NCBI GenBank assembly: GCA_016176335.1
Contig: JACOXI010000003.1
Coordinates: 258,477 to 322,476 of the forward strand
Length of the DNA: 64,000 nucleotides
Reading direction: 5' to 3'
Source of the DNA: Candidatus Daviesbacteria bacterium
GTDB lineage: Bacteria > Patescibacteriota > Microgenomatia > Daviesbacterales > UBA10151
Positions 5,893-49,075 of this stretch are shown here, piece by piece (position 1 is the stretch's first letter; the number at the start of each line of letters is the position of its first letter). The notes beneath the pieces are model-generated. The model did no database searches and had not been told where the DNA came from. It saw only the letters and a program-made list of their open reading frames with translations. The translations under genes and the position numbers were made by a program.

Positions 5893-6409
5893 TGTATATG
5901 GTAAAAAATTGGGAAGAAATAAAAACGAAAGAACTGCACTTTTTAAAAGTTTAGTGCGCAGTCTTTTTAGTTATGGAACTATTGAGACTTCCGAATCTAA
6001 AGCCAAGGCTGTAAAAGGGTTAGTTGATAAAATTATCAACCTGGCTAAAAACAAAAGCACCCAGCATTTATTGCAATCATATTTAGTAAACAGAGATTTA
6101 CAACAAAGATTAATTAAAGAAATTGCTCCAAAACTTTCTGATAGGATTTCCGGGTATACTACCATGTTGAGAATCGGTACAAGAGCAGGTGACAGATCAA
6201 CAATGGTAAGAGTGAGTCTGATACATAACGAGCAGTTAAAGCCAATAGAGAAAAAAGAATTAAGAATTAAGAATCGAGAATCAAGCGAAAAGATAGTAAG
6301 GACTGAAGTAAAAAAAACTGTTTCCGAGAAGAAAGGTAGAACTGGACAATCTGTTAGAAAAACTCACGTCACAAAGAAGAGGACTTCAAGATTGTCCAAA
6401 ACAAAATGA
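5882..6409 (+). CDS. rplQ: 50S ribosomal protein L17 with a Lys-rich C-terminal extension
   Basis: …RHNVYGKKLGRNKNERTALFKSLVRSLFSYGTIET…TTMLRIGTRAGD… matches L17. The start is probably GTG/TTG near 5876–5882. About 60 extra basic residues at the C-terminus. Confidence 0.8.
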   Translation: MRHNVYGKKLGRNKNERTALFKSLVRSLFSYGTIETSESKAKAVKGLVDKIINLAKNKSTQHLLQSYLVNRDLQQRLIKEIAPKLSDRISGYTTMLRIGTRAGDRSTMVRVSLIHNEQLKPIEKKELRIKNRESSEKIVRTEVKKTVSEKKGRTGQSVRKTHVTKKRTSRLSKTK

Positions 6410-8768: not shown

Positions 8769-8816
8769 CAATTAATTTTCCACTTGCCAAAATAGGTAAT
8801 TTGTGGTTTAATAATA

Positions 8817-8936
8817 ATGCATCAAGAGTGCCGCCTAAAAGGCGAGCCGGCAACCGAAAAGTTAACGGTGCCAAAGATGATGTGCCCTGCTACATAAGCG
8901 AGGAAAACTTAATCCTCTCTTATGAGAGGTTTTTTT
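8817..8936 (+). promoter_or_regulatory. SAM riboswitch (SAM-I/SAM-IV clan, SAM-IV-like core) with intrinsic terminator, 5' of metK
   Basis: …GCAUCAAGAGUGCCGCC-uaaaa-GGCGAGCCGGCAACC…CGGUGCCaaagAUGAUGUGC… matches the S-box/SAM-IV conserved strings (AUCAAGAG, GAGUGCC, CCGGCAACC, GGUGCC, P1 closing GAUGAUG). A terminator hairpin CCTCTCttatGAGAGG plus T7 follows at 8914–8936. It lies directly upstream of metK. Confidence 0.55.
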
Positions 8937-8944
8937 AAAAAAAT

Positions 8945-10057
8945 ATGGCAAAAAACAGTACTACTACTTTTACATCAGAATCTGTTTGTGCTGGTCATCC
9001 GGATAAAATTTGTGACCAAATTTCCGATGCCATTTTGGATGAAGTATTAAAACAAGATTCGCATGGTCGAACAGCGATTGAATGTTTGGCCGCCAGTAAT
9101 AGATTAATTATTGCAGGAGAAGTGGGCGCTCGGGCAAAAGTAGATTTTAAAAAAATCGCCCGAGAACAAATAAAAAGACTTGGTTACACAAATAGCAAAT
9201 TTAATTTTTCGGACAAGTCTCCAATAGATGTATACGTACACGAACAATCTCTGGAAATTTCGGTGGGAGTGAAACGTAAAGGTGCCGGGGATCAGGGAAT
9301 GATGTTTGGTTTTGCTTGTAAAGAAACAGCTGTGTTAATGCCTTTGCCGATTATGATTGCACATGTACTAACCAGAAAAATGGATCAGGTTCGGGAAGAA
9401 AATATAGTTGATTATCTTCGCCCGGATGGTAAATCTCAAGTAACGATAGAATATAAAAATGGCAAGCCTGTAAAAATTATACAAGTTGTTATAGCAATAC
9501 CACACAAAGAATCCGTAGCACTAGATTACGTCAAAGATGATGTTTACAGAGTAATAGTGACACCGGTATTGGAAACCTTTGGATTTAAAATGAAAAAGGA
9601 CAAGCTGATTGTGAACGGTACAGGTATTTGGCATAACGGCGGCCCTGCATCAGATTGCGGTTTAACCGGTAGAAAAATTGTGGTTGACACATATGGAGGT
9701 TATGCCAGAGTTGGTGGAGGTTGTTTTTCCGGTAAAGAACCCTCAAAGGTAGATAGGGGTGGTGCATATGCGGCAAGATTCTTGGCCAAAAATGTGGTGG
9801 CACATGGTTTGGCGGAAAAGGCGGAGGTCAGACTGGCTTATTTTATTGGGGCTAAAAAGCCTACCATGGAGGATATAGAAACTTTTGGGACTGCAAAAAA
9901 GTCTCACAAAGTAATCCTTTCTTTTATGAATAAAATTTTAGATACATCTGTTGAAGGAATTTTAAAAGGATTGGATTTGCAAAGACCAATTTATTTACCA
10001 ACTGCCGCGTACGGTCACTTCGGCCGTGAAGAATTCCCCTGGGAAAAAGTAGTCTAA
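8945..10057 (+). CDS. metK: S-adenosylmethionine synthetase
   Basis: GHPDKICDQISDAILD, GAGDQGMMFGFA and the full MetK length. Confidence 0.9.
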   Translation: MAKNSTTTFTSESVCAGHPDKICDQISDAILDEVLKQDSHGRTAIECLAASNRLIIAGEVGARAKVDFKKIAREQIKRLGYTNSKFNFSDKSPIDVYVHEQSLEISVGVKRKGAGDQGMMFGFACKETAVLMPLPIMIAHVLTRKMDQVREENIVDYLRPDGKSQVTIEYKNGKPVKIIQVVIAIPHKESVALDYVKDDVYRVIVTPVLETFGFKMKKDKLIVNGTGIWHNGGPASDCGLTGRKIVVDTYGGYARVGGGCFSGKEPSKVDRGGAYAARFLAKNVVAHGLAEKAEVRLAYFIGAKKPTMEDIETFGTAKKSHKVILSFMNKILDTSVEGILKGLDLQRPIYLPTAAYGHFGREEFPWEKVV

Positions 10058-22750: not shown

Positions 22751-23176
22751 TCAGAATATATTAATATTCAAAACATTATTTTTCATTAGAAAATAAAGGA
22801 TGATTTGTAAACCCAATGCAGTACCTGCAAAGATAGAAATCTTCAGCAGATCTTGACGAAGGTAGGTGGTGTCATCGATAGTGACTTCCACTTTTGTGGT
22901 AGACGGCTCGCCTCGCTGTCGCCCTTGGCGAACCTCGTCAAAGACGGGCGAAGCGGGCAGACTGTAGATGTTAGACTGATCATTCCTGCCATAGAATTGC
23001 TGGCGAAGGATCTTGAGGCGTTTTTCCAAATCTGACTGATGTTTGCTCTGGTGTAGGGCCATGTTAGGTTCAGCTACGCACACTTGAGCCTTAGAGAACA
23101 TACAATTGAGTTCTCGCAGGATCAAATCGATTAGATTTGAGCCTATCACGCACAGTGTACGCTTGTCAAGCACCAA
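22751..23176 (-). CDS. hypothetical C-terminally membrane-anchored protein containing GC-rich element copy 2 (coding status uncertain)
   Basis: 141-codon ORF with a TTG/GTG start and C-terminal hydrophobic helix ISIFAGTALGLQIILYFLM. It carries the in-frame GC-rich repeat at 22902–22962. No recognisable family. Confidence 0.3.
   Translation of the reverse strand: MVLDKRTLCVIGSNLIDLILRELNCMFSKAQVCVAEPNMALHQSKHQSDLEKRLKILRQQFYGRNDQSNIYSLPASPVFDEVRQGRQRGEPSTTKVEVTIDDTTYLRQDLLKISIFAGTALGLQIILYFLMKNNVLNINIF
22902..22962. repeat. GC-rich palindromic mini-element (copy 2, permuted relative to the miaA copy)
   Basis: GACGGCTCGCCTCGCTGTCGCCCTTGGCGAACCTCGTCAAAGACGGGCGAAGCGGGCAGAC. It shares GGCTCGCCTCGC, CGTCAAAGACG and GCGAAGCGGGC with the copy at 18648–18701, in a different order. 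Confidence 0.5.
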
Positions 23177-30378: not shown

Positions 30379-31968
30379 ATGCAGCATGATATGAGATGGA
30401 AAGTAGCAGGTAAACAAAGTGCTGGTCTCATCCAACAACTGCTTCTCAATCGTGGGATTAAAACTAATAAAGAAAAACAAGATTTTTTTAACCCGAATCT
30501 AGCCTCGTATAAAAAGGATCTGGATATTCCCGGAATAGAAAAAGCTCAAAAGAGAATATTTGAGGCAATAAAAAATAACGAGTTGATAATAGTATACGGA
30601 GATTATGATGTGGATGGAATTTGTGGGACTGCTATTTTGTATAAAGGGTTAACCTCACTTGGAGTAAAAGTTTTACCCTACATTCCGCATAGAGAAAAAG
30701 AAGGTTATGGATTATCAAGGATAGGTTTGGAATTTGCTAGGGATTCAGGGGCATCGGTTGTAATAACAGTTGATAACGGAATTGTGGCGATAGATCAGGC
30801 AAAATTGGCAAAAAGTTTAGGATTGGATCTTATTATTACCGATCACCATATCCTCGGAAAAGTTAAACCGGATGCATACGGGATAGTACATTCTACAAAC
30901 ATGTGTGGAGCAGCAGTTGCCTGGTGTCTTATCAATTCACTGATTAAAAAAGAGTTGGCCCAAGAACTTTTGCAGTTTGCAGCAATTGCCACTGTTTGTG
31001 ATCTGCTTCCATTAATGGGCTTGGGTAGAGCATTTGTTTTTGAGGGACTAAAGATTTTAAATCGCACAACCAACTTGGGGTTACTTGCTCTTATTAATGA
31101 ATCTGGTATTAGCTTGGGTAATATCGGCTCATATGAGATAGGTTACATTATTGGACCAAGGCTTAATGCCATGGGCAGGTTAGAACATGCCATAGATTCT
31201 TTACGCTTACTTTGTACTAAGGATCCTGCCAAAGCTTCGAAATTGGCCAAACTTTTATCAGAAACAAATGTCACCCGTCAAAAGATGACAATGGCGGCAA
31301 TTGATGAAGCAAAATCATTAGTGGACGAAAAGAAAAAGATTCATATTTTAAGCAGTAAAGATTGGTCTGCCGGTATTATTGGATTGGTGGCAGGCAGGAT
31401 CACTGAACAATATTTCCGTCCAACAATTGCTATTTCTTTGGGAGAGACAGTTTCCAAAGGTTCTGCCCGTTCGGTAGATGGAATAAATATTGTGGAGGTA
31501 ATCAGAAAACACTCTGATATATTAATTGATGTCGGAGGGCATCCTGGTGCAGCTGGTTTTTCCATCTTGAGTAAACATATAGACATTTTTAAAAAGAGAG
31601 TGGAAAGCGAGGAGATAGCCTTGCCAGAGTCAGAGCAGGTTTTAGCAATTGATGCCAAAGTTCAAACAGAACAATTAAACAAAACTTTAGTGCAGGAGTT
31701 GGAAAAATTTGAGCCGTTCGGTTTTGGCAACCCCAGACCAATTTTGGCAACATATGGAATGAGTATTTCTGATATTAGAATTGTAGGGGGAGGAAAGCAT
31801 TTGAAATGTAAAGCGGATGGGATTGATGCCATTGCTTTTGGAATGGGAGAGCAGGTTAATCTTTTAAGATCCGGCCAAATAGTAGACTTGGCATATAACT
31901 TGGAACTTGATACTTATAATAGCAATGATAAGTTACAATTAAAAGTTAAGGATATAAAAATTATTTAG
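30379..31968 (+). CDS. recJ: single-stranded-DNA-specific exonuclease RecJ
   Basis: DHH motifs (…IIVYGDYDVDGICGTAIL…, …ITDHHIL…) and the DHHA1 domain (…GGHPGAAGF…). 529 aa. Confidence 0.9.
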   Translation: MQHDMRWKVAGKQSAGLIQQLLLNRGIKTNKEKQDFFNPNLASYKKDLDIPGIEKAQKRIFEAIKNNELIIVYGDYDVDGICGTAILYKGLTSLGVKVLPYIPHREKEGYGLSRIGLEFARDSGASVVITVDNGIVAIDQAKLAKSLGLDLIITDHHILGKVKPDAYGIVHSTNMCGAAVAWCLINSLIKKELAQELLQFAAIATVCDLLPLMGLGRAFVFEGLKILNRTTNLGLLALINESGISLGNIGSYEIGYIIGPRLNAMGRLEHAIDSLRLLCTKDPAKASKLAKLLSETNVTRQKMTMAAIDEAKSLVDEKKKIHILSSKDWSAGIIGLVAGRITEQYFRPTIAISLGETVSKGSARSVDGINIVEVIRKHSDILIDVGGHPGAAGFSILSKHIDIFKKRVESEEIALPESEQVLAIDAKVQTEQLNKTLVQELEKFEPFGFGNPRPILATYGMSISDIRIVGGGKHLKCKADGIDAIAFGMGEQVNLLRSGQIVDLAYNLELDTYNSNDKLQLKVKDIKII

Positions 31969-32173
31969 AGCCGTTAGTTCGATCTTCCACAGGCTCATAG
32001 GTTCTTGTAGTTGTATTAAAATACCACTCTTCAGAAACACCAGGGCATTCTCTTGGTCCTACTCCATTCCCAAAAATATTAGTACGAAGAGTTGCTTCTG
32101 GTACCAACCTACGGTCAGGTGTATTTTTAGGGCGATGATATGCTTCTAATCCTCCTCTTACTTCTGTTGTCAT
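31961..32173 (-). CDS. hypothetical 70-aa protein (GC-richer island)
   Basis: Excellent RBS AAAGGAGGAGGAATAAA-ATG. Product MTTEVRGGLEAYHRPKNTPDRRLVPEATLRTNIFGNGVGPRECPGVSEEWYFNTTTRTYEPVEDRTNGSK has no recognisable family. It overlaps the recJ 3' end by 8 nt on the opposite strand. Confidence 0.4.
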   Translation of the reverse strand: MTTEVRGGLEAYHRPKNTPDRRLVPEATLRTNIFGNGVGPRECPGVSEEWYFNTTTRTYEPVEDRTNGSK

Positions 32174-32445
32174 TTTATTCCTCCTCCTTTCCGCACTTGT
32201 CTCAATGAAGAGCGAAGTGACTTTACCCCCCTACTGTAGACAGCACTATCAATAACTCCTGCAGCTAATTGGGTTCTAATTCTATGTATTTTTTCTTCAA
32301 TCTCAGCTAGTGGTGAGGATAATACTTGGTAATGTATGGGTGAACCGTGAGGTGACAACAGACGTCTTCGCCTGCCCCTATCAGCTAATCCTATCGCGCT
32401 TTCTGCTGTTGGATCTTGCCACTCTCTAAAATAACGTTCTTTCAT
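32170..32445 (-). CDS. questionable 91-aa ORF, possibly a structured 5' leader of the 70-aa gene
   Basis: No SD within 5–10 nt of its ATG; a hairpin plus U-run ends 12 nt upstream. Its last codons are simply the RBS of the downstream ORF translated (…RKGGGIK*). Arg-rich low-complexity stretch RGRRRRLLSPHGSP. Confidence 0.2.
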   Translation of the reverse strand: MKERYFREWQDPTAESAIGLADRGRRRRLLSPHGSPIHYQVLSSPLAEIEEKIHRIRTQLAAGVIDSAVYSRGVKSLRSSLRQVRKGGGIK

Positions 32446-32507
32446 ATTTTTTCCATTAAAAAACCTCCCGTTTGGGAGGTCTGATTCCTTTCTATTTTAG
32501 GTTAAAT

Positions 32508-32609
32508 TTACCTAAAAAGACCTCCCCAAAAAGTGGCCAAAATGACCACCAAAATAAGGAGGCCTACAATTAACAAATTTTCTCTTGGTAAACTAATCAC
32601 TTTTGACAT
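32508..32609 (-). CDS. putative 33-aa hydrophobic small peptide (leaderless), followed by a hairpin terminator
   Basis: ATG at 32607–32609 (minus strand) with a -10-like TACTAAAT immediately upstream and no SD. Product MSKVISLPRENLLIVGLLILVVILATFWGGLFR. Hairpin CCTCCCaaacGGGAGG plus T6 (32464–32479) follows. Confidence 0.3.
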   Translation of the reverse strand: MSKVISLPRENLLIVGLLILVVILATFWGGLFR

Positions 32610-32734
32610 ATTTAGTATTGTATCTTGTTTAAGTAAACAATGCAAGTGTCCGCAATATTCCCCATAGAAATTCGAGAATAGCGAGAAAAAGTTGCGTTTT
32701 CGTAAACTTTATATTAAGATTGCATCTTATAATA

Positions 32735-34336
32735 ATGTCTGCAGAACAAGATAAATCATTTTTGGTAATCGGCGGAGCTGATGGTATGGGTAACTGGCTT
32801 GTGCGCCGAGTCTTTGGACAGGTATCAGGAATAAATCGTATCACCCTTCTTGATGTTCGTCCTGTTGATCAAATTCCGAATGCTAGATGGTTAAGCGAGT
32901 TTGGCCAACTCCCTAATCCCATAGATGGTATTCAGGTAGATTATTCTGTCAGTCCTGACAGATTAATCCATGGATGGAGACCAATCGCTACAAATTCTAC
33001 TCCTCCAGAAAGTAGGCTTCCGTTATCTGAATATGATATCGTTATGCTGGGAGTACCTGCAGATCAAATATCTACTGCTGTCGCCAATATTTTTCCGCAA
33101 TTGAAAAGATCCGTCTGGATACTTGATATCTGTTCTGTTAAGCAGAAGCCCATAGAAATTATGCATCAACAAGCTCCGGAGGGAGCTTCTATTATTGGTA
33201 CGCACCCACTTTTTGGGCCAGCTGTACCTGATCTTATAGGGCAGAGGATGGTAATGGTTGAGACTCCCTCAACTAATTCTGATCATTTTAATTGGCTGAC
33301 CCAGCTCTATAGAGATCGTGGTGCTCTGATAGTGCAAGCAGCACCTGATGAGCATGACTATTATATGCAATTTGTACAGGGACTTACACACTTTAGCTTC
33401 TTCCTGTTTGGCGAAGTTTTAAGGCGGGCAATGTACAGAGGCTTTAATTTTGATCGTTCGTTTGATTTCATGACACCCCCATATGCAGCTGTTGCAGGGT
33501 TTCTTGGAAGAATAATTTCAGCTAACCCTAGGGTTTATGCCCAAATTCAGGCTGATCCTACCATGTTGCCTATAAGGGATTTGCTAGTTGAGTCAGCCCG
33601 TTCCTTAGTTTCTAGTTTCAGAGATTCTGATGAAACTGGAATTATTTTGGCAATAGAGGGTATAACTGGTCCTTTTCAAGAGCGTGGAGTTGCAAAAGGC
33701 ATTTCTCTTTCTGCATCTTTTGTAGCAGCAAATCAGGCATACTTTCGTTTGCTACAAGAACGTAAAGTTGAGGAGCGATTAACTGTTGTACAGGTAGTAG
33801 ATCCTATAGATACAGGTAGGGAAAGAGTTTATCATGCAGGACGACTAATTGATTTTGATGGTGAATCTTTAGTGCTTAGAGAACGTACCTCCTTCATAGA
33901 TGGTAAGTTAATCATAGTCTATGGTCAAGAATCCCAACGTGGTGCTGAGCGATTATTAAGAAAATTTGGAATGGGATTACCTAAAGGTAAAGAGATTCGT
34001 ATACACCATAAGAGAGCCCGTGTTTTGTCTGATCCAGAGACTGACCTGTGGAGAAGACTTAACCTATTGCATCATGTATCTGATATCCCAGTTATAACGG
34101 AAGTACCGACGCGATTGGAAGGACTTATAAGAAATATCCCTTTGCTCTGCCCAGATGTTGTCTCCTTAGCAACAAGAACAGTAGAAGAAGCTCGTTGGTT
34201 ACAGCGCTATGGATTAACTAATCAAATTTTGCACCTCACAGTTTATGGAGATAGGAATATGGCAGAAGTCCAAGCACAAGTAATCCAATTACTCTCCGTA
34301 TCAGGACTAAAGCTACATCAGGAGGTTAACAGTTAA
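32735..34336 (+). CDS. prephenate/arogenate dehydrogenase (TyrA) domain fused to a ~240-aa C-terminal domain of unknown function
   Basis: N-terminal Rossmann VIGGADGMGNW, catalytic THPLFGP (the HPMFGP-type TyrA motif) and dimerisation region. The C-terminal 240 aa has no recognisable motif. GC about 45% against about 35% genome background. An alternative start lies at 32720. Confidence 0.65.
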   Translation: MSAEQDKSFLVIGGADGMGNWLVRRVFGQVSGINRITLLDVRPVDQIPNARWLSEFGQLPNPIDGIQVDYSVSPDRLIHGWRPIATNSTPPESRLPLSEYDIVMLGVPADQISTAVANIFPQLKRSVWILDICSVKQKPIEIMHQQAPEGASIIGTHPLFGPAVPDLIGQRMVMVETPSTNSDHFNWLTQLYRDRGALIVQAAPDEHDYYMQFVQGLTHFSFFLFGEVLRRAMYRGFNFDRSFDFMTPPYAAVAGFLGRIISANPRVYAQIQADPTMLPIRDLLVESARSLVSSFRDSDETGIILAIEGITGPFQERGVAKGISLSASFVAANQAYFRLLQERKVEERLTVVQVVDPIDTGRERVYHAGRLIDFDGESLVLRERTSFIDGKLIIVYGQESQRGAERLLRKFGMGLPKGKEIRIHHKRARVLSDPETDLWRRLNLLHHVSDIPVITEVPTRLEGLIRNIPLLCPDVVSLATRTVEEARWLQRYGLTNQILHLTVYGDRNMAEVQAQVIQLLSVSGLKLHQEVNS

Positions 34337-34382
34337 TTATCAGCACCAATGCAGATTGATTTTAAATCTCCTTAATCTCTTC

Positions 34383-35468
34383 TTAAGATAATTTTTCAGA
34401 AATGAGTTGGGCTAATGTTGGTGCTTTTCCTAGCCCTAATTTTGCCCTCCTAAGATTAGCGGTTTCAGTATCGAATTTTATTTGATTTAAATTTGCCACA
34501 ATTTCGGCTATTTCAGTTCTACCAGTATAAGGTCTTAAGTTGCTGACATAGACCTGAAGAGCACTAGGGGTTCTTAAATCTTCAATAGTTGGTTCACCTC
34601 CAAAGCGTTCAGCAATTGGAATTCTTTGATAGGGGGCATGGAGGTGCTTTGCAGAAATAACTGTTCCTATCTCTTTATCTCGAGCAGGTTCCCATCCAAT
34701 ACCTTCAACTTCTTTCATAAGTAGTAAATATCTTAACTCTGAAGCAGGCATAAAGTTAATTCTCCGCTCACCGTTTCTTGCAAAAAGTAGCTCCTCTTGG
34801 CTGTACCCCCATGCAGGTGGATGAGTAAGTAGATATATTAGTGGTCGTTGAGGAACATCTAAGAGATGATCAGTGGTACCATTTCTATTATAGCGTTCTG
34901 CAACTTCTGCCAGACTAGAAGCAATAGTTGGATGAGTAATTTGAATATGCTGTACAATTGGTAACAAATGTTCTTCGGTTTCGCAGGTAATTGGGTTTCC
35001 TGCATCAAGAGTTACTCTTACACCACTTAATTCAGGATAATAAGCATCTTTATACGCCTCAATAAATCCCCTGATTTGTTGTGCATTAGCCATCTGGTTA
35101 TCTATATCTCCGCCATTGGCGTACACATTGCTATGACAAGGACTCATAATTCTAAGAGCAGCAAGGTTTACCTGATTAACCTCACGAAGGCGGCGGGACA
35201 AGCTTAATGCTGTACTTACATAACCAACTACTCTCGCAGGCAAATCAGTAGGACGAGTATTGGGCATGACAATCACGATACTCATTTCTACGGACTGCTG
35301 TCCTTCTCTCCAACCGTGGAGAAAATCTGGAGTTCGAATGTCATGTGAGGCAATGAGGGGAGAATTTATTTTTCCGTCTGAAGGATCAGTCAAAAATCTC
35401 CAACCCATTCTAGTTAGTGCCTCATAATACTGATTCGTCCATGGTTGATTGGCATGTCCTCTTTCCAT
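34383..35468 (-). CDS. hypothetical 361-aa protein (GC-richer island)
   Basis: Long ORF with non-host-like codon usage and no family assignable by eye. Ends 2 nt before the aminotransferase gene on the same strand (operonic). Confidence 0.45.
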   Translation of the reverse strand: MERGHANQPWTNQYYEALTRMGWRFLTDPSDGKINSPLIASHDIRTPDFLHGWREGQQSVEMSIVIVMPNTRPTDLPARVVGYVSTALSLSRRLREVNQVNLAALRIMSPCHSNVYANGGDIDNQMANAQQIRGFIEAYKDAYYPELSGVRVTLDAGNPITCETEEHLLPIVQHIQITHPTIASSLAEVAERYNRNGTTDHLLDVPQRPLIYLLTHPPAWGYSQEELLFARNGERRINFMPASELRYLLLMKEVEGIGWEPARDKEIGTVISAKHLHAPYQRIPIAERFGGEPTIEDLRTPSALQVYVSNLRPYTGRTEIAEIVANLNQIKFDTETANLRRAKLGLGKAPTLAQLISEKLS

Positions 35469-35470
35469 GG

Positions 35471-36586
35471 TCAGTTAATCTCCTTTAAAGAAGTTAAAAA
35501 TTTTTTATTTTTTTCTTCATCAGCGATAGTTATTCTTACAAAACCCATATTTTCAATTCCTTTTGACTTTCTAAAATCAGCAGTGAGAATACCCTTTTTT
35601 AAAAGTTCTTCGTATAAGTCTTTCGTTCTATGTTTCAATAAATAAATATTTGTTTTTGTATCTGCTCCTAACTCTAGATTTTTTAATTTAGAAATTTCTC
35701 TAAAAAGATTTTCCCTTAACCTTCTTGTTTCTAAGGTTGTTCTTTGAATGAATGTTTGATCCATAAGAGCAGCCCCAGCAAGATTGATGATTAGTCCAGA
35801 AGTCATCAGCATAGTATCTCGATAATTCTCAATTACTTCTATCATTTTTGAATGAGCTAAGGCATAACCAAAGCGTAAACCCGCTAATCCATAAGCTTTT
35901 GATAGAGTACGAAGAACAATTAGATTTTCATACTTATGAATTAATTTAATGGCAGATTTTTTATGCTTTGGATCGTAAAATTCAAAAAAAGCTTCGTCTA
36001 CAATAACAAGAGATGGCGAATTTTTTACAATTCTTTCGATTTGTTCTTGTTCATAAACTTCTCCAGTCGGATTGTTGGGATTACAGATCCAAATAATACT
36101 GGCGTTATTTTTGTTAGCTGAGTTGCATATCCTGTCAATCAAGATCGAATCAGGCTTAAAACAATTATTTGCAGGTAAGTTTAGATATATTACCCCACCT
36201 TGCATTAATAGTGAAGCTTCAGAAAATCTATAAAACGAGGGTACAACAATAATACTTTTGCTATTTTTATCCACAATCATTCTTGGTAAATAATCAATGA
36301 TTTCATTGCTACTATTGGCAATAGTTACATTATTCATTGAAAGGTTATATAAAGAGGCAATGATTTTTTTGATTTTGCTATTGCTGGGGTCGGTATAATA
36401 GGCTAGAATTTTTTTATCAATAGCCTTTAAGACGGTTTCAATATTGACACTGCCAAGTAGATTCTCTCCTAAATCAAGTCTAAGGTATTTAGAAAGATCA
36501 TCAAACTTTTGATCCTTAGAGAGATATCCAGTGACTCTAATCTTTAAATATTTATTGGTAATTGTATTTAGTTTCATTTTTTTCAT
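35471..36586 (-). CDS. class I/II pyridoxal-phosphate aminotransferase (HisC/aromatic aminotransferase-like)
   Basis: PLP-lysine motif LRTLSKAYGLAGLRFGY, N.NNPTG and DEAF motifs. 371 aa. Confidence 0.75.
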   Translation of the reverse strand: MKKMKLNTITNKYLKIRVTGYLSKDQKFDDLSKYLRLDLGENLLGSVNIETVLKAIDKKILAYYTDPSNSKIKKIIASLYNLSMNNVTIANSSNEIIDYLPRMIVDKNSKSIIVVPSFYRFSEASLLMQGGVIYLNLPANNCFKPDSILIDRICNSANKNNASIIWICNPNNPTGEVYEQEQIERIVKNSPSLVIVDEAFFEFYDPKHKKSAIKLIHKYENLIVLRTLSKAYGLAGLRFGYALAHSKMIEVIENYRDTMLMTSGLIINLAGAALMDQTFIQRTTLETRRLRENLFREISKLKNLELGADTKTNIYLLKHRTKDLYEELLKKGILTADFRKSKGIENMGFVRITIADEEKNKKFLTSLKEIN

Positions 36587-36712
36587 TAAAAAACCTCCGA
36601 CACAAAACGGAGGTTAGTCTATTTAGCTGATTTTTATTTCACAAAAACCAACCTCCGTTTTAAGCGAAGGTAAAGAAAAAGCCAACAGCCTTTCTTTGTA
36701 GTTTTTGCACAG
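36587..36712 (-). promoter_or_regulatory. 5' leader of the aminotransferase gene with mutually exclusive antiterminator/terminator hairpins that sequester the SD
   Basis: Minus-strand transcript: …AACGGAGGTTggttttt…(antiterminator partner)…AACCTCCGttttgtgtCGGAGGTTTTTTA-ATG. The terminator stem CCTCCG/CGGAGG (36594–36613) contains the GGAGG SD 8 nt before the ATG. A -35 TTGACA/-10-like promoter lies at about 36718–36747. Confidence 0.45.
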
Positions 36713-36768
36713 AGAGTACTTTATCATAAGAATTCAAGCCTTGTCAAGTTCTTTCACAAACTGATATT

Positions 36769-41640: not shown

Positions 41641-41985
41641 ATGGAGGATCCCAGGTGGCTGCGACTAATAACTATCGGGTTGGTTTTGGCAGCCTTGGCT
41701 GTTGGTTATTTTCTTTTAACAGGCAGGTTATCTCCAAATAGCACAACCAGGACACAAACTCAAGTGAATAAGGCAGTTGAATCCCCAACTCCTAATGCAG
41801 TTCCCGGCGTTACTCCGCCATCTTCTCCCACCCCTACCCCTGCTTCTGCCTATTCCAGAATAGTTGAGCGTACTCAAGATGGAGTAAAGAGTTTGCCTAA
41901 GACTGGTTTTCCGCAGGCTTTGTTAACAGTTATTTCAATTGGGGTAATGATCTCCGGTTTGGGTCTTCGTAAGTTTCCGTATTAA
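41641..41985 (+). CDS. small LPXTG cell-wall-anchor protein
   Basis: N-terminal TM/signal, Pro/Thr/Ser-rich stalk, then the LPKTG sorting motif, hydrophobic segment and basic tail (…SLPKTGFPQALLTVISIGVMISGLGLRKFPY*). Confidence 0.55.
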   Translation: MEDPRWLRLITIGLVLAALAVGYFLLTGRLSPNSTTRTQTQVNKAVESPTPNAVPGVTPPSSPTPTPASAYSRIVERTQDGVKSLPKTGFPQALLTVISIGVMISGLGLRKFPY

Positions 41986-41988
41986 TTC

Positions 41989-42546
41989 TTAATCTGTTTT
42001 TCCGCTTAGGAGAGCATCAATTATATCGTGAGGTAGCGCCGCCGCATTTAGCAGAGCTTTTCTGACTAAACTGCCTGCTTCTGATCCAATTTCATCAGCT
42101 GCTTTAAGAATTCCCATGACAGCACTTTTTGCCAGTTCCCCTGAATCTGCCCCAATATCACCGGCTGCTTGAATAGCTCCCTCAACAGAAGAGATAGCTA
42201 CTCCCCCAATATCTCCACCGACCTTGGAGGTGGTTTTTACAGCTTGTGATGCAGCCTCACCTGCTGCTTCGGTTGCGTTTACTCCAGTATCTTTTGCTCC
42301 ATCCACCACACCTCTGACTAAACCTGTGACTCCATCTGTTAAGGAGGCCCCTGTTCCGGATATAGTTTCCAAACCTTCACCTACAACCTGGTCAATTGTT
42401 TGAAGGCCGGTGCTTGCCACATCTCCTGCTCCAGAAATAAGCTTGACAACGTTTTCCCGAGCTACATTTTGTACAGTTGAGGCCACATCACCTGCACCGG
42501 AGACAACTGAAGAAAGAGCATTTTTAAAATCGTCGGTTACAGACAT
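41989..42546 (-). CDS. hypothetical Ala/Gly/Val/Asp-rich repetitive protein
   Basis: 185 aa of low complexity with internal repeats (…ISGAGDVAST… twice; GxxAxxAxxD periodicity). Family not assignable. Confidence 0.4.
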   Translation of the reverse strand: MSVTDDFKNALSSVVSGAGDVASTVQNVARENVVKLISGAGDVASTGLQTIDQVVGEGLETISGTGASLTDGVTGLVRGVVDGAKDTGVNATEAAGEAASQAVKTTSKVGGDIGGVAISSVEGAIQAAGDIGADSGELAKSAVMGILKAADEIGSEAGSLVRKALLNAAALPHDIIDALLSGKTD

Positions 42547-42633
42547 TAAATTTAGAGTAACATTAGTAATTTATTTAGTCAATACCCCGTATTAGCTATG
42601 GGTATTATAAATTGATATAATCATCCCGCATAT

Positions 42634-42704
42634 TGCGGGATGGTGAAATGGTATCACAACTGGCTCTGAACCAGTTATTCTAGGTTCAAATCCTAGTCCC
42701 GCAG
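42634..42704 (+). tRNA. tRNA-Gln (anticodon CTG)
   Basis: Hand-folded: acceptor TGCGGGA/TCCCGCA (U1:A72, typical of bacterial tRNA-Gln), D-stem GTGA/TCAC, anticodon stem ACTGG/CCAGT with loop CT-CTG-AA, T-arm CTAGG-TTCAAAT-CCTAG, discriminator G. A -10 TATAAT lies 7 nt upstream. Confidence 0.8.
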
Positions 42705-42815
42705 CCCTTCGACTTCGTCCCAATAAATTGGGACTTCGCTCAGGGCTATAGCCTTTTACTTTCATAAAGTAGAAGTCGAAGGCCCTGAGTGAGCGTAGCG
42801 AATCGAAGGGCTATA
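42705..42815. repeat. GC-rich long imperfect palindrome immediately 3' of tRNA-Gln (intergenic GC-repeat family)
   Basis: GCCCTTCGACTTCG…CGCTCAGGGC…GCCCTGAGTGAGCGTAGCGAATCGAAGGGC has arms pairing over about 30 nt. It shares the words CTCAGGG, GTCGAAGG, CCTGAG and GAGCGTAG with the elements at 38203–38255 and 63849–63915. Confidence 0.5.
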
Positions 42816-43144: not shown

Positions 43145-44626
43145 ATGCCAAAAATAAAATCATCGGAGCAACAACTATCGCGAGAATCATTAAATGAGTT
43201 AAAACTCCTGATTGAAAAAAAAGGATGGAGTCTCGTACCAATCCATCTCGAGGATGATTTTGGGGCTGACGGGCAAGTAGAACTTTTTGTCCGAAAGAAA
43301 AAAGATTACGAATATAGTCCTTATTCTTTCAAGTTTCAGTTGAAATCGACAACTTCTGGTAAAAATACAGAAGATTTTAGTCTTATTGATTTGAAGACAT
43401 GGTGTCATAGTCCCATTCCTTTCTTTCTGTTTTTTTGGAATAAAGCTGAAAATAAATTTTACTGGATAAACCTACATGAATTTTGTAACAATTTAGAATT
43501 AACCAGCCCAGAAAAATTCGAGCAGACTTATTTAAAAATTAACTTTGAGAACGAGCTAAACGTGGATAGTTTTAACCTTATTGAGATGAACACAAGAAAC
43601 CTTTGCAAAATGGCGGCGAGGGCAATTAATGATAACGTAGGTAAACAAGTTGCCGTTGGGGATCTTGCTAAACAGGGAGAACCAATCATAGCTCTCGGCT
43701 ATTCTTTTAAAAAAGCTGATCTTTCAAAAATGGATATGAGGAAGGCAATTATGATGGGTATTGATTTTAATAATGCTGATCTTTCTCATGCAGATATGAG
43801 ATCAGGTGCATTTATGGGAGCAAATTTTAAAGGCGCTAATTTAGATGGAGCAGATCTTCGAAGTTGTAGTTTTATGGGCGCGTTTCTTGAAAAAGCTAAA
43901 TTAAGAACAGTAAAACTGCAGGGAGCGGCTTTTATGGGAGCGTTTGTGGAGGGAGCAGATTTTTCAGGAGCTGAATGGGATGATATTTCCCTATGGTCAA
44001 TAAGCAAATCCTATGATTTCGAAAAGGCCATATTTGATGAAGGTATTTTAGGTAAAATTGTTAAACTGGGCAAAATAAACAATCTTGCTGTTAATAATTT
44101 ATCTGTTGTAAATAATAAACAAGATATTTCTGTTATAGACAAATGGATTGCAGTTAAAACTGAAAACGAACAGGGCGCTGATTATCGGTCGGTTCCGCTT
44201 GAGGGTAAACCGTTAAATAAAATTACCTTTAGGATTAAACCCATGTCGCCTTTTTGGAGAGCAGGTTTGAAAATTGTTGATCCCAACGGCTCATTCCTAC
44301 CATTAAGAAGCGTGAATAGTATTCTTTTCCATTTGGGATCTACAGTAACTAATAATTTTTTCGGTATTACCGCGTATGTAAATGGTGAATTAGTAGGAGC
44401 TGTTAATAAATCCTTGAAATATGACCCCCTTCAATCAATAATAATTAGTTTCGAGGTTAACCAAAATAACTTCGTTAAGTTTTTTGTGAATGGATCTGTC
44501 GAATTTGAACCGAACGAGAGAATAAACCCTCGTCTATTAAAAAAGGCTTGTCTAGTTGCATGGGGTGATATTAATGACTACAAGGTTGGATTTGATGAGA
44601 TAAAATTTTTACCGAGAGCGGCATAG
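43145..44626 (+). CDS. three-domain protein: DUF4365-like PD-(D/E)xK nuclease N-domain, pentapeptide-repeat tract, C-terminal beta-sandwich domain
   Basis: The N-domain (…WSLVPIHLEDDFGADGQVELFV…FKFQLKSTTSGK…WCHSPIPFFLFFWNKAENKFYWINL) fits the D…E.K / 'QVKST' pattern of DUF4365 restriction-endonuclease-fold domains. Residues 190–280 form about 18 tandem pentapeptides (ADLSKMDMRKAIMMGIDFNNADLSHADMRSGAFMGANFKGANLDGADLRSCSFMGAFLEKAKL…). The C-terminal 200 aa is beta-rich (…FRIKPMSPFWRAGLKIVDPNGSF…GITAYVNGELVGAVN…FFVNGSVEFEPNE…). Confidence 0.6.
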   Translation: MPKIKSSEQQLSRESLNELKLLIEKKGWSLVPIHLEDDFGADGQVELFVRKKKDYEYSPYSFKFQLKSTTSGKNTEDFSLIDLKTWCHSPIPFFLFFWNKAENKFYWINLHEFCNNLELTSPEKFEQTYLKINFENELNVDSFNLIEMNTRNLCKMAARAINDNVGKQVAVGDLAKQGEPIIALGYSFKKADLSKMDMRKAIMMGIDFNNADLSHADMRSGAFMGANFKGANLDGADLRSCSFMGAFLEKAKLRTVKLQGAAFMGAFVEGADFSGAEWDDISLWSISKSYDFEKAIFDEGILGKIVKLGKINNLAVNNLSVVNNKQDISVIDKWIAVKTENEQGADYRSVPLEGKPLNKITFRIKPMSPFWRAGLKIVDPNGSFLPLRSVNSILFHLGSTVTNNFFGITAYVNGELVGAVNKSLKYDPLQSIIISFEVNQNNFVKFFVNGSVEFEPNERINPRLLKKACLVAWGDINDYKVGFDEIKFLPRAA

Positions 44627-48847: not shown

Positions 48848-49075
48848 AAAAAATCCCCTTTCGGGGATACAATAAACACCAATTGGTGTATTTTTCTTTC
48901 TTTCATCCCGACTGTACCCTTCGATACTTCGACTTCGCTCAGTACTCAGGGTTCTTCACTTTGTGAAGAACGGTCGGCTTTGGACTTTCACCAAATCATC
49001 CATATACCGTTTCTGGTATGTGGTCGTGGGCTATACCACCGATTTTGACTTACACAAAACCCCGAAAGAACAGCT
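48848..49075 (-). promoter_or_regulatory. FMN riboswitch (RFN element) with terminator/SD-sequestering expression platform, 5' of the rib operon
   Basis: The minus strand reads …UCUUUCGGGGuuuuGUG.AA.UC…AUCGGUGGUauAGCCCaCGAcc…GGAUgauuugGUGAAAGUCCAAAGCCGACCGU…AAAGU…GAAGGGUACAGUCGGGAUGAAAGAAAG. This matches RFN conserved blocks (CGGGG, ACCGG.GGU, AGCCCGCGA, AAGCCGACAGU.AAAGU, GGAUG.AAGA). It is followed by AUCCCCgaaaGGGGAU plus U6 directly abutting the ribE ATG; the 3' half-stem GGGGA is the likely SD. Confidence 0.7.

Follow-up and report, generated by a model that had tools for sequence, protein, structure and literature searches.

A putative phenylalanine-starvation attenuator in front of an aminotransferase and a synthetase-like protein in Candidatus Daviesbacteria

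The attenuators of pheA (pheL, Rfam family RF01859) and pheST (pheM) in Escherichia coli combine a short open reading frame (ORF) carrying a run of phenylalanine codons with mutually exclusive antiterminator and terminator hairpins and a T-run located directly before the regulated gene, with pheM residing between rplT and pheS. In bacteria of the candidate phyla radiation (CPR), which are thought to rely on scavenged amino acids, little is known about gene regulation. Here we have analyzed a stretch of 64,000 nucleotides from a Candidatus Daviesbacteria bacterium (contig JACOXI010000003.1, positions 258,477 to 322,476 of the forward strand), hereafter termed the window, and have found an element that resembles pheL and pheM in all of these respects, including, in three relatives, the position between rplT and pheS. 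It precedes the genes of an aminotransferase and of a protein of 361 amino acids (aa) without annotation, which we refer to as protein X. We assign a probability of about 70% to the proposal that the region constitutes a chromosomal and lineage-conserved regulon for the supply of Phe and Tyr, which is induced upon Phe starvation by ribosome-mediated attenuation. The features underlying this proposal are, in coordinates of the window:

36718-36747, minus strand: promoter of the aminotransferase-X operon, with TTGACA, an 18-nt spacer and TG-n-TAAAGT
36660-36710, minus strand: leader peptide ORF of 16 codons, GTG CAA ... TTT TTC TTT ACC TTC GCT TAA, encoding MQKLQRKAVGFFFTFA followed by a stop
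36588-36671, minus strand: attenuator RNA with the segments A (CCTTCG), B (CGGAGGTTGG), C (CTAACCTCCG) and D (CGGAGG), then T6
35471-36586, minus strand: HisC-like aminotransferase of 371 aa, preceded by the terminator-containing leader; its homologs begin at the second ATG (36577)
34383-35468, minus strand: protein X of 361 aa, starting 2 nt past the stop codon of the aminotransferase
32720/32735-34336, plus strand: TyrA-like ORF, of 533 aa when taken from 32735

The translation of ORFs has borne out the gene content and coordinates contained in an earlier description of this DNA that was based on its letters alone (the sequence-only reading). The same holds for its claim of a HisC-type aminotransferase located behind an attenuator, for which leader ORF, alternative hairpins and terminator were all found computationally. 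The promoter is the best-scoring match between 31 and 38 kb (10/12 positions, with an extended -10 element) and it is conserved in the three related loci L010, L004 and L005. The start codon of the leader is located 7 nt past the -10 hexamer and thus so close to it that the leader mRNA would be leaderless or nearly so. Four Phe codons are found among the final six codons of the leader. In the RNA, segments A and B, B and C, and C and D can pair, with B:C, an alternative helix of 11 bp according to RNA folding, acting as antiterminator and C:D as terminator, and both the terminator (36615-36592) and the A:B hairpin (36671-36651) were independently detected by a scan. In a minimum free energy (MFE) simulation, where a stalled ribosome makes the RNA unavailable for pairing as far as 13 nt beyond the A-site codon, the antiterminated fold was obtained for stalls through the third Phe codon and the terminator for stalls from the next codon to the stop. 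A T-box or riboswitch was set aside as sensor, since no such Rfam family is found in this leader or in a second copy of the element described below, and since the codon runs of the leaders explain their conservation. RF01859 is absent from an Rfam scan of the whole window at gathering threshold, with its scores amounting to 27.5 bits for the aminotransferase leader and 31.6 bits for the second copy at a gathering score of 55. We therefore take the element to act like pheL or pheM, yet to stand outside that Rfam family.

According to the mechanism that we propose, transcription would begin at or beside the start codon of the leader ORF, which ends with FFFTFA and a stop codon. When Phe-tRNA(Phe) is scarce, the ribosome would stall at the Phe codons and cover segment A, upon which B would pair with C and RNA polymerase would read through into the aminotransferase gene and the coupled gene of X. 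With ample Phe-tRNA(Phe), the ribosome would instead reach the stop codon in the A:B loop and the C:D hairpin, with its GGAGG followed by T6, would terminate transcription. It is from the sequence that we infer read-through to be caused by stalling at Phe codons. In the metabolic part of this scheme, the aminotransferase would form Phe or Tyr from aryl-pyruvates and the neighbouring archaeal-type TyrA would convert prephenate to 4-hydroxyphenylpyruvate, with its ACT-like C-terminal region probably serving feedback control, and X would be a descendant of a TyrRS/TrpRS-type catalytic domain.

The attenuator is not confined to the window. Promoter, leader ORF, the segments A to D and the T-run are conserved across the window, L010, L004 and L005, where the leaders of the latter three read MHAKKPSRILLFFFAFA and MQKPTGRIYWFFFTFA, each followed by a stop, and MNRNQTFFYFWFT..., respectively. 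The start codon is found 6-15 nt past the -10 box in every inspected copy of this scaffold. Among 15 leaders, the segments B, C and D switch in concert between CGGAGG/CCTCCG/CGGAGG and GGGAGG/CCTCCC/GGGAGG. An aromatic-rich leader is present at 12/12 of the loci encoding X that have readable upstream DNA, with the following leader features:

Window: FFFTFA
L010: FFFAFA
L004: YWFFFTFA
L005: FFYFWF
L012: ...FFTFA (cut by the end of the contig)
L003: LFFPTFA
L013: FFGFFFTFA
L014: FGFFFTFA
L001: FYWFHY
L015: FWFYFY
L016: LF...SFF
L011: FLFKYFSFIF

Locus L011 contains scaffold copies at 6080-6205 and 9125-9250, one with an Ile-rich and one with a Tyr-rich leader. The Ile-rich leader (ENIAIIIN; MLNSFISENIAIIINLTDGRTC, then a stop) precedes a gene for citramalate synthase (TIGR00977, 509 bits at a cutoff of 450), which catalyzes the initial step in isoleucine formation from pyruvate, and this case serves as internal control for the inference of function from the leader. 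The leader with the sequence YYYY (MGKLINKYYYYNNFSKGGGLA, then a stop) precedes a distant X paralog of 323 aa (hhalign probability 83%). It thus appears that a single modular scaffold has been recoded for Phe, Tyr, Ile and Leu/Ile/Val, and that the leader codons name the amino acid that is served by the downstream gene. In this way, the labelling by leaders singles out the unannotated family of X, which is often wedged between attenuator and pheS, and makes its function directly testable. In contrast to pheL and pheM, the leader ORF of this scaffold starts 6-15 nt past the -10 box on an apparently leaderless or nearly leaderless mRNA, the stems are made of CCTCC and GGAGG, the host belongs to the CPR, one scaffold bears Phe, Tyr, Ile or Leu/Ile/Val runs before differing genes, and the genes controlled here encode an aminotransferase and a synthetase-like protein. 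CPR bacteria hence appear to use classical ribosome-mediated attenuation, for which we found no report on CPR or Patescibacteria in the searchable literature.

The aminotransferase is a fold-type I enzyme dependent on pyridoxal phosphate (PLP; Pfam PF00155, E 1e-39), whose translation contains the PLP-lysine motif SKAYGLAGLR. It is 80-85% identical to its counterparts in L004 and L010, with a ratio of nonsynonymous to synonymous substitution rates (dN/dS) of about 0.16. With 221.3 bits, its score against the hisC equivalog TIGR01141 is below the cutoff of 276.55, so that homology alone does not specify its substrate. Judging from the Phe leader, which favours aryl-pyruvates, it is probably an aromatic aminotransferase acting on phenylpyruvate or 4-hydroxyphenylpyruvate.

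The TyrA-like protein matches PF02153 with 57.5 bits (cutoff 26.5) and PF20463 with borderline 22.5 bits (cutoff 22), both together covering residues 102-279, and its residues 103-531 align with NF006411, the PRK08655 model, with 178 bits at a cutoff of 464; it remains below every equivalog cutoff of NCBIfam. Pfam, alignment and structure model agree on a prephenate-dehydrogenase core with the motif THPLFGP, as had been recognized in the sequence-only reading. The fusion to an uncharacterized 240-aa domain that was postulated there is not supported, as the C-terminus aligns with prephenate dehydrogenases of the PRK08655 type. An alignment to TyrA from Haemophilus influenzae (2pv7) retains HPLFGP, EHD...Q.L.HF and LGRI. 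Invariant within the family are S134, H157, H219 and R259, which we presume to be equivalent to S126, H147, H217 and R250 of the Aquifex aeolicus enzyme. An AlphaFold2 (AF2) model with a mean predicted local distance difference test score (pLDDT) of 83, which Foldseek relates to 2pv7 (E 4e-14, TMt 0.82-0.83), displays a core that extends from residue 1 to about residue 346, beyond which a beta-rich domain and an ACT/ferredoxin-like unit with the order beta-alpha-beta-beta-alpha-beta are found. The common TyrA core, the catalytic His and Arg and a C-terminal region of regulatory type are shared with PRK08655-type prephenate dehydrogenases and with the ACT-containing TyrA of Bacillus anthracis. 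The protein of the window exceeds the PRK08655-type proteins (431-457 aa) by about 90 residues, which are accounted for by around 45 aa inserted into the nucleotide-binding domain and a second insertion in the C-terminal part. We read these sequence features as those of a putatively genuine, if divergent, archaeal-type prephenate/arogenate dehydrogenase. Searches of the accessible literature for prephenate dehydrogenase in CPR, for shikimate in Daviesbacteria and for phenylalanine in Microgenomates returned nothing relevant. The gene lacks an attenuator and is preceded by a promoter-like sequence of its own, which is conserved in L004, and it adjoins X in only 2/13 of the loci encoding X. In L006, pheS-pheT and two tRNA-Phe genes are succeeded by a TyrA-like homolog. 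The two tRNA genes form a tandem of tRNA-Phe(GAA) at L006:6346-6591, between pheS-pheT with a subsequent uncharacterized 281-aa protein and the TyrA-like homolog, which is itself followed by a DDE_3 transposase on a contig with a G+C content (GC) of 57%.

The surroundings of X were compared at 13 loci. They include the following arrangements:

Aminotransferase, then X: window, L010, L004, L005, L012
X, then aminotransferase: L014
X, an unrelated uncharacterized protein of 534 aa, then aminotransferase: L016
X, an uncharacterized protein of 534-539 aa, MR_MLE racemase/epimerase, PepT-like M20 peptidase: L003, L015
rplT, X, flavoenzyme of D-amino-acid-oxidase type, (Ldh_2), pheS: L001
thrS-infC-rplT, X, pheS: L013
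rplT, aminotransferase, X, pheS: L005
Citramalate synthase, X, X paralog: L011

An aminotransferase is thus a neighbour of X in 7/13 loci, and when no other gene separates the two, they are spaced by -4 to +7 nt. The 361-aa protein, which had earlier been regarded as unrelated, is translationally coupled to the enzyme in the window. In L001, L005 and L013, X resides between rplT and pheS, and in L012 it is followed at a distance of 2 nt by a stand-alone ACT domain of 111 aa (L012:2346-2681), which scores best against the regulatory domain of prephenate dehydratase (NF008865, E 8e-10) and against that of phenylalanine hydroxylase. The sets of racemase and peptidase may serve a D-to-L or peptide-based salvage of amino acids. 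Taken together, these arrangements describe X as a protein that is putatively induced upon Phe starvation, encoded amid enzymes that make or salvage L-Phe and beside the enzyme that charges Phe.

Several observations concern the neighbours of X in their own right. The family of 534-539 aa directly following X (L003:1461-3080 and L015:1358-2962; 43% mutual identity) has no match in Pfam or NCBIfam, and the proposition that its 539-aa member in L003 would be TyrA-like was refuted by hhalign (probability 0.4%). In L011, a carboxylate-amine ligase of the GCS2 type precedes the same racemase-peptidase pair. A protein of 514 aa (P0027) was considered as a Rosetta-stone fusion of aminotransferase and X and was rejected, as it contains only the first roughly 200 residues of the aminotransferase and lacks the PLP-lysine region. 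Its two parts meet at a YYD common to both, and it probably arose by deletion or as a chimera of the assembly, yet it still shows that both genes are adjacent. In P0048 (839 aa), the X domain follows an N-terminal region of roughly 490 residues without Pfam match.

The description of the 361-aa protein as an unknown in the sequence-only reading has held, as X finds no match in the families of Pfam and NCBIfam. Its family comprises 27 proteins in a search of 5.8 billion sequences, none of which matched Pfam, including PF00579 (tRNA-synt_1b), at E<=10. Among 1.8 billion cluster representatives, about 35 genuine members were returned by a profile search, besides repeat proteins sharing a single helix, and none of ten distant members that were scanned contains a Pfam domain. 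Scans of genomes and metagenomes with one alignment of the family gave only 1 and 2 loci. Sequence and profile searches of the PDB gave no match, and no similarity was found by hhalign to an approximate sequence of the TyrRS of Methanocaldococcus jannaschii. A description of the family was not found in the searchable literature. An AF2 model based on the family alignment (pLDDT 92.3, predicted TM-score (pTM) 0.91) retrieves with Foldseek 24 PDB entries at E<=1e-3, all 24 of which are TrpRS or TyrRS (best E 1.5e-5, probability 1.0, TM 0.42-0.45 and about 10% identity), followed at lower ranks by the cyclodipeptide synthase YvmC (3s7t, E 5e-3) and MshC. On the basis of this model, X is predicted to adopt a fold resembling class Ic aminoacyl-tRNA synthetases and to represent an undescribed family. 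The Rossmann catalytic domain and the C-terminal helices are common to X and the class Ic synthetases (TrpRS and TyrRS; PF00579), from which X differs by the absence of detectable sequence similarity, the TM-scores of 0.42-0.45, the tiny size of its family, which is restricted to CPR so far as contigs have been identified, and the coexistence with a canonical PheRS.

The positions of the HIGH, KMSKS and GxDQ motifs were mapped on X by the order of secondary structure elements in the model rather than by structural superposition. At the position of HIGH, the helix after strand 1 begins with DLPAR (residues 75-79), and at the position of KMSKS, the loop after strand 5 contains ISAK(Q/H), whose Lys is not conserved in distant members. 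X thus appears to lack both ATP motifs and it may, as judged from the model, have lost ATP-dependent activation. The residues P110, Y212, H216, E244 and Y280 are invariant across the superfamily and P77, D155, P241, S243 and E292 nearly so. By the same order of elements, Y212-x3-H216 is found on the helix equivalent to the one carrying Y-x3-Q in TyrRS, which binds the amino group of the substrate, and P-A-S243-E244 at the position of G-x-D-Q, which binds the ribose, so that a Y-x3-H pair and an S-E pair would replace the Y-x3-Q and D-Q of TyrRS. X hence appears to keep residues that hold the alpha-amino group of an amino acid (Y212/H216) and the ribose (S243-E244), and in the model it looks like a synthetase catalytic domain that is still able to hold an amino acid and perhaps adenosine.

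In light of these properties, X could be a new aromatic amino-acid enzyme, a synthetase-derived regulator or a tRNA-linked activity. Our working assignment, which we regard as tentative, is that of a Phe-specific enzyme or subunit, which would act with the aminotransferase in the last Phe-forming step or steps, in the usual place of PheA, with the paralog as its counterpart in Tyr formation. Possible too, if somewhat doubtful, is a role on tRNA or in conjunction with PheRS, where X would bind the aminoacylated 3' end of tRNA(Phe) and its paralog that of tRNA(Tyr), with trans-editing, auxiliary or alternative charging and a tRNA-dependent synthesis with the PLP enzyme, similar to SepRS/SepCysS, as possible activities. 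Such a role would be consistent with the class Ic catalytic fold and its C-terminal helical domain, with the invariance throughout the superfamily of Y212/H216 and of E244 at the position of the ribose-binding acid, with the location between Phe attenuator and pheS in three genomes, with the tight coupling to a fold-type I PLP enzyme and with the Tyr leader of the paralog. It is less readily reconciled with HIGH and KMSKS positions that are apparently not conserved, which makes an ATP-dependent activation unlikely, with the canonical pheS or pheT found in the same loci and with the short C-terminal helical part, whereas the neighbouring ACT domain of PheA type, the D-amino-acid-oxidase-type flavoenzyme and Ldh_2 suggest small-molecule metabolism. 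The cyclodipeptide synthases (CDPS) offer a comparison in this respect. Like X, they have a class Ic-derived fold without HIGH or KMSKS, but the C-terminal helical domain is missing in CDPS, X does not match their Pfam family, and their consumption of aminoacyl-tRNAs would be counter-productive for a gene that is induced by a shortage of Phe-tRNA.

Other descendants of synthetases, namely HisZ and AsnA, resemble X in being encoded and co-regulated with genes for the supply of the cognate amino acid. However, both derive from class II with known partners and reactions, whereas X derives from class I. The precedent of HisZ, the apparent loss of the synthetase motifs with apparent retention of the amino-acid-binding positions and the translational coupling to the aminotransferase would all suit a non-catalytic Phe sensor or regulatory subunit that tunes the aminotransferase or another partner. 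We nevertheless consider this unlikely, as X has no constant partner gene and stands alone beside pheS in L013, as its many invariant polar residues are reminiscent of an active site, and as L012 already contains an ACT domain of its own as sensor. Quite improbable in our view is an active, re-invented enzyme of the class I synthetase type for Phe with a Tyr-specific paralog, in which R79, R106 and R236 would replace HIGH and KMSKS. It might either provide a second, starvation-induced route to Phe-tRNA(Phe), as a class I equivalent to PheRS, which is of class II, or cooperate with the PLP aminotransferase to form Phe in a tRNA-dependent manner, as in the case of SepRS/SepCysS. If true, either version would connect amino-acid synthesis with tRNA charging in CPR in a novel way.

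Returning to the proposed Phe-starvation-induced regulon and to the enzymatic role of X within it, several points weigh against them. Within the 64-kb window, no genes for shikimate or chorismate synthesis or for PheA were found, and we know of no protein with an aminoacyl-tRNA synthetase fold that carries out PheA-like chemistry. The paralog with its Tyr leader would suit a side-chain-specific binder as well as an isoenzyme. X is without constant enzyme partner, its company including aminotransferase, TyrA, flavoenzyme, Ldh_2, MR_MLE racemase with PepT-like peptidase, and pheS, and the mapping of its motifs relies on the order of elements instead of a residue-level structural alignment. With respect to the attenuator, neither leader of the window attains the gathering score of the Rfam Phe_leader family, the crude MFE stall simulation gave no switch for two leaders of L011, and the leader ORF of the window begins with GTG, which is a poor initiator on leaderless mRNA in model bacteria. 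The steps of the mechanism are deduced from sequence, folding and comparison.

A different view of the region was offered by the sequence-only reading, which regarded it as a compositionally foreign, GC-richer island and speculated on a Tyr- or arylpyruvate-derived metabolite module or a peptide-modification module. In its full form, the island would be horizontally acquired and the module could be one for ribosomally synthesized and post-translationally modified peptides (RiPP), with two small ORFs next to recJ as precursors. We consider this view highly improbable. Its hand counts of 27/60 and 14/60 G+C are exact, but they are not representative of the region. The GC between 31961 and 35470 is 40.7% compared to 38.2% in the rest of the window, which corresponds to the 91st percentile among windows of the same size and not to the maximum, and no 500-nt window within the region exceeds 43.6%. 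The strong local contrast is mainly a consequence of the adjoining aminotransferase, which, with a GC of 30.2%, is one of the two lowest-GC genes of the window. A shift in codon usage towards CTG, CGC and GGC could not be reproduced, as GC at third codon positions (GC3) and codon counts match the rest of the window. The four genes of the region have GC3 values of 0.197-0.289 at a window mean of 0.317 (standard deviation 0.047), and the codon log-likelihoods of all four are within about 1.6 standard deviations of the mean. Leu is encoded by CTG in 7% of cases within the region and in 12% outside it, Gly by GGC in 11% and 12%, respectively, and only the CGN codons for Arg show some enrichment. 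The excess in GC resides in codon positions 1 and 2 and it is an effect of Arg-rich and Lys-poor proteins (8.8% Arg and 2.7% Lys in the region, 4.2% and 7.7% in the rest of the window), in which Pro and His are likewise raised. A GC island that is seen by eye can thus be a consequence of amino-acid composition.

The pattern recurs in L004, L005 and L010, where the GC of the aminotransferase is about 30% and that of X about 38-39%, which identifies the contrast as a property of the genes instead of a sign of recent insertion. The surrounding gene order is equally shared with relatives. As in the window, aspS is divergent from aminotransferase-X in L010, whose X is 73% identical, two small ORFs are convergent with recJ in L009, and L011 keeps the secF-CCA-recJ backbone with X adjoining recJ. 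Neither an integrase nor a flanking tRNA turned up for the region in the scans that were run, with the nearest tRNAs located at 11.2 kb and 42.6 kb of the window. A recent foreign island was rejected on account of GC3, codon use and the synteny and GC pattern of relatives. The comparison of gene order largely supports ordinary aromatic amino-acid genes, with the exception of the 361-aa protein, which is not ordinary. The Arg-rich, Lys-poor composition of the proteins relative to the rest of the window and the presence of nearby small ORFs are in accord with the island view, as are distant TyrA-like homologs (36-43% identity) on contigs with a GC of 57%, and an ancient transfer of the tyrA-like gene is possible. 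With respect to a peptide-modification or aryl-metabolite module, Pfam and NCBIfam scans of the five genes of the region and their neighbours revealed no RiPP or natural-product enzymes, and a RiPP module was rejected, as domains of modifying enzymes, proteases or exporters are absent from the scanned genes and the small ORFs are not kept with X at the other loci of sufficient length. Moreover, regulation by a leader with Phe codons suits primary metabolism.

The small ORFs belong to a separate operon under a sister attenuator, with the following features:

32617-32645, minus strand: promoter read from the sequence, with TTGCAT, a 17-nt spacer and TACAAT
32508-32609, minus strand: second leader peptide ORF of 33 codons, MSKVISLPRENLLIVGLLILVVILATFWGGLFR followed by a stop, with a Leu/Ile/Val run
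32458-32557, minus strand: second attenuator with B (GGGGAGGTCT), C (AGACCTCCC) and D (GGGAGG), then T6 and AATGGAAAAAATATG
32170-32445, minus strand: basic protein of 91 aa, the first gene of the operon
31961-32173, minus strand: ORF of 70 aa, overlapping the 91-aa ORF by 4 nt (ATGA) and the stop of recJ

This second copy of the scaffold spans 32609-32458 upstream of both ORFs and shares the architecture of the aminotransferase leader, with its ATG located 7 nt after the -10 element. The 22-nt 3' motif of the scaffold is found in exactly 2 copies in the window (0.03 expected by chance) and the pattern CCTCC..GGAGGTTTTT equally in 2 copies (0.01 expected). The 3' part of the second attenuator is conserved in L009. 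In the stall simulation, antitermination was obtained only from stalls at codons 14-24 (IVGLLILVVIL), which, for a single full-length sequence, points to a putative sensing of branched-chain amino acids. The notion that the two small ORFs are probable genes has been strengthened by a pair with 67-70% identity adjoining recJ in L009. There, the 91-aa protein has its one homolog (P0044, E 1e-26, 67% identity in one comparison and 70% in another that counted aligned residues), with a dN/dS of 0.44, and its GC at codon positions 1 and 2 is about 0.5 compared to a GC3 of 0.27. The 70-aa ORF corresponds to one of 67 aa in L009 (82% amino acid identity) and shows a strong codon-position periodicity (GC3 0.197), yet a dN/dS of about 0.9. 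Its proportion of synonymous differences to L009 (pS), at small counts, is 0.09 compared to 0.25-0.30 for its neighbours, and there may be constraint on the nucleotide sequence itself. At the remaining X loci of sufficient length, X is not accompanied by the small ORFs, and we thus regard these as standing outside the module despite the same type of control.

The remainder of the window contains typical housekeeping genes, including those of SecY, MetK, RecA, RNase Y, MiaA, SecDF, the CCA enzyme, RecJ, AspRS, GluRS, riboflavin synthesis and transketolase. Two riboswitches score above the Rfam gathering threshold, a SAM-I/IV element before metK (8814-8920, plus strand) and an FMN element before the riboflavin operon (48891-49073, minus strand). 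The most atypical codon usage of the window is found in an ORF of 141 aa (22751-23176, minus strand; GC3 0.493, lowest log-likelihood of -1.33), for which a foreign or non-coding nature is more plausible than for the region described in this study. The highest GC in the vicinity, with up to 48.8% in 500-nt windows, is located at 41641-42546 beside a tRNA-Gln (42633-42707), in a segment holding ORFs of 114 and 185 aa with a GC of 46-47% and up to 0.645 at first codon positions (GC1). A protein of 493 aa with a DUF4365 domain and pentapeptide repeats is encoded at 43145-44626 on the plus strand.

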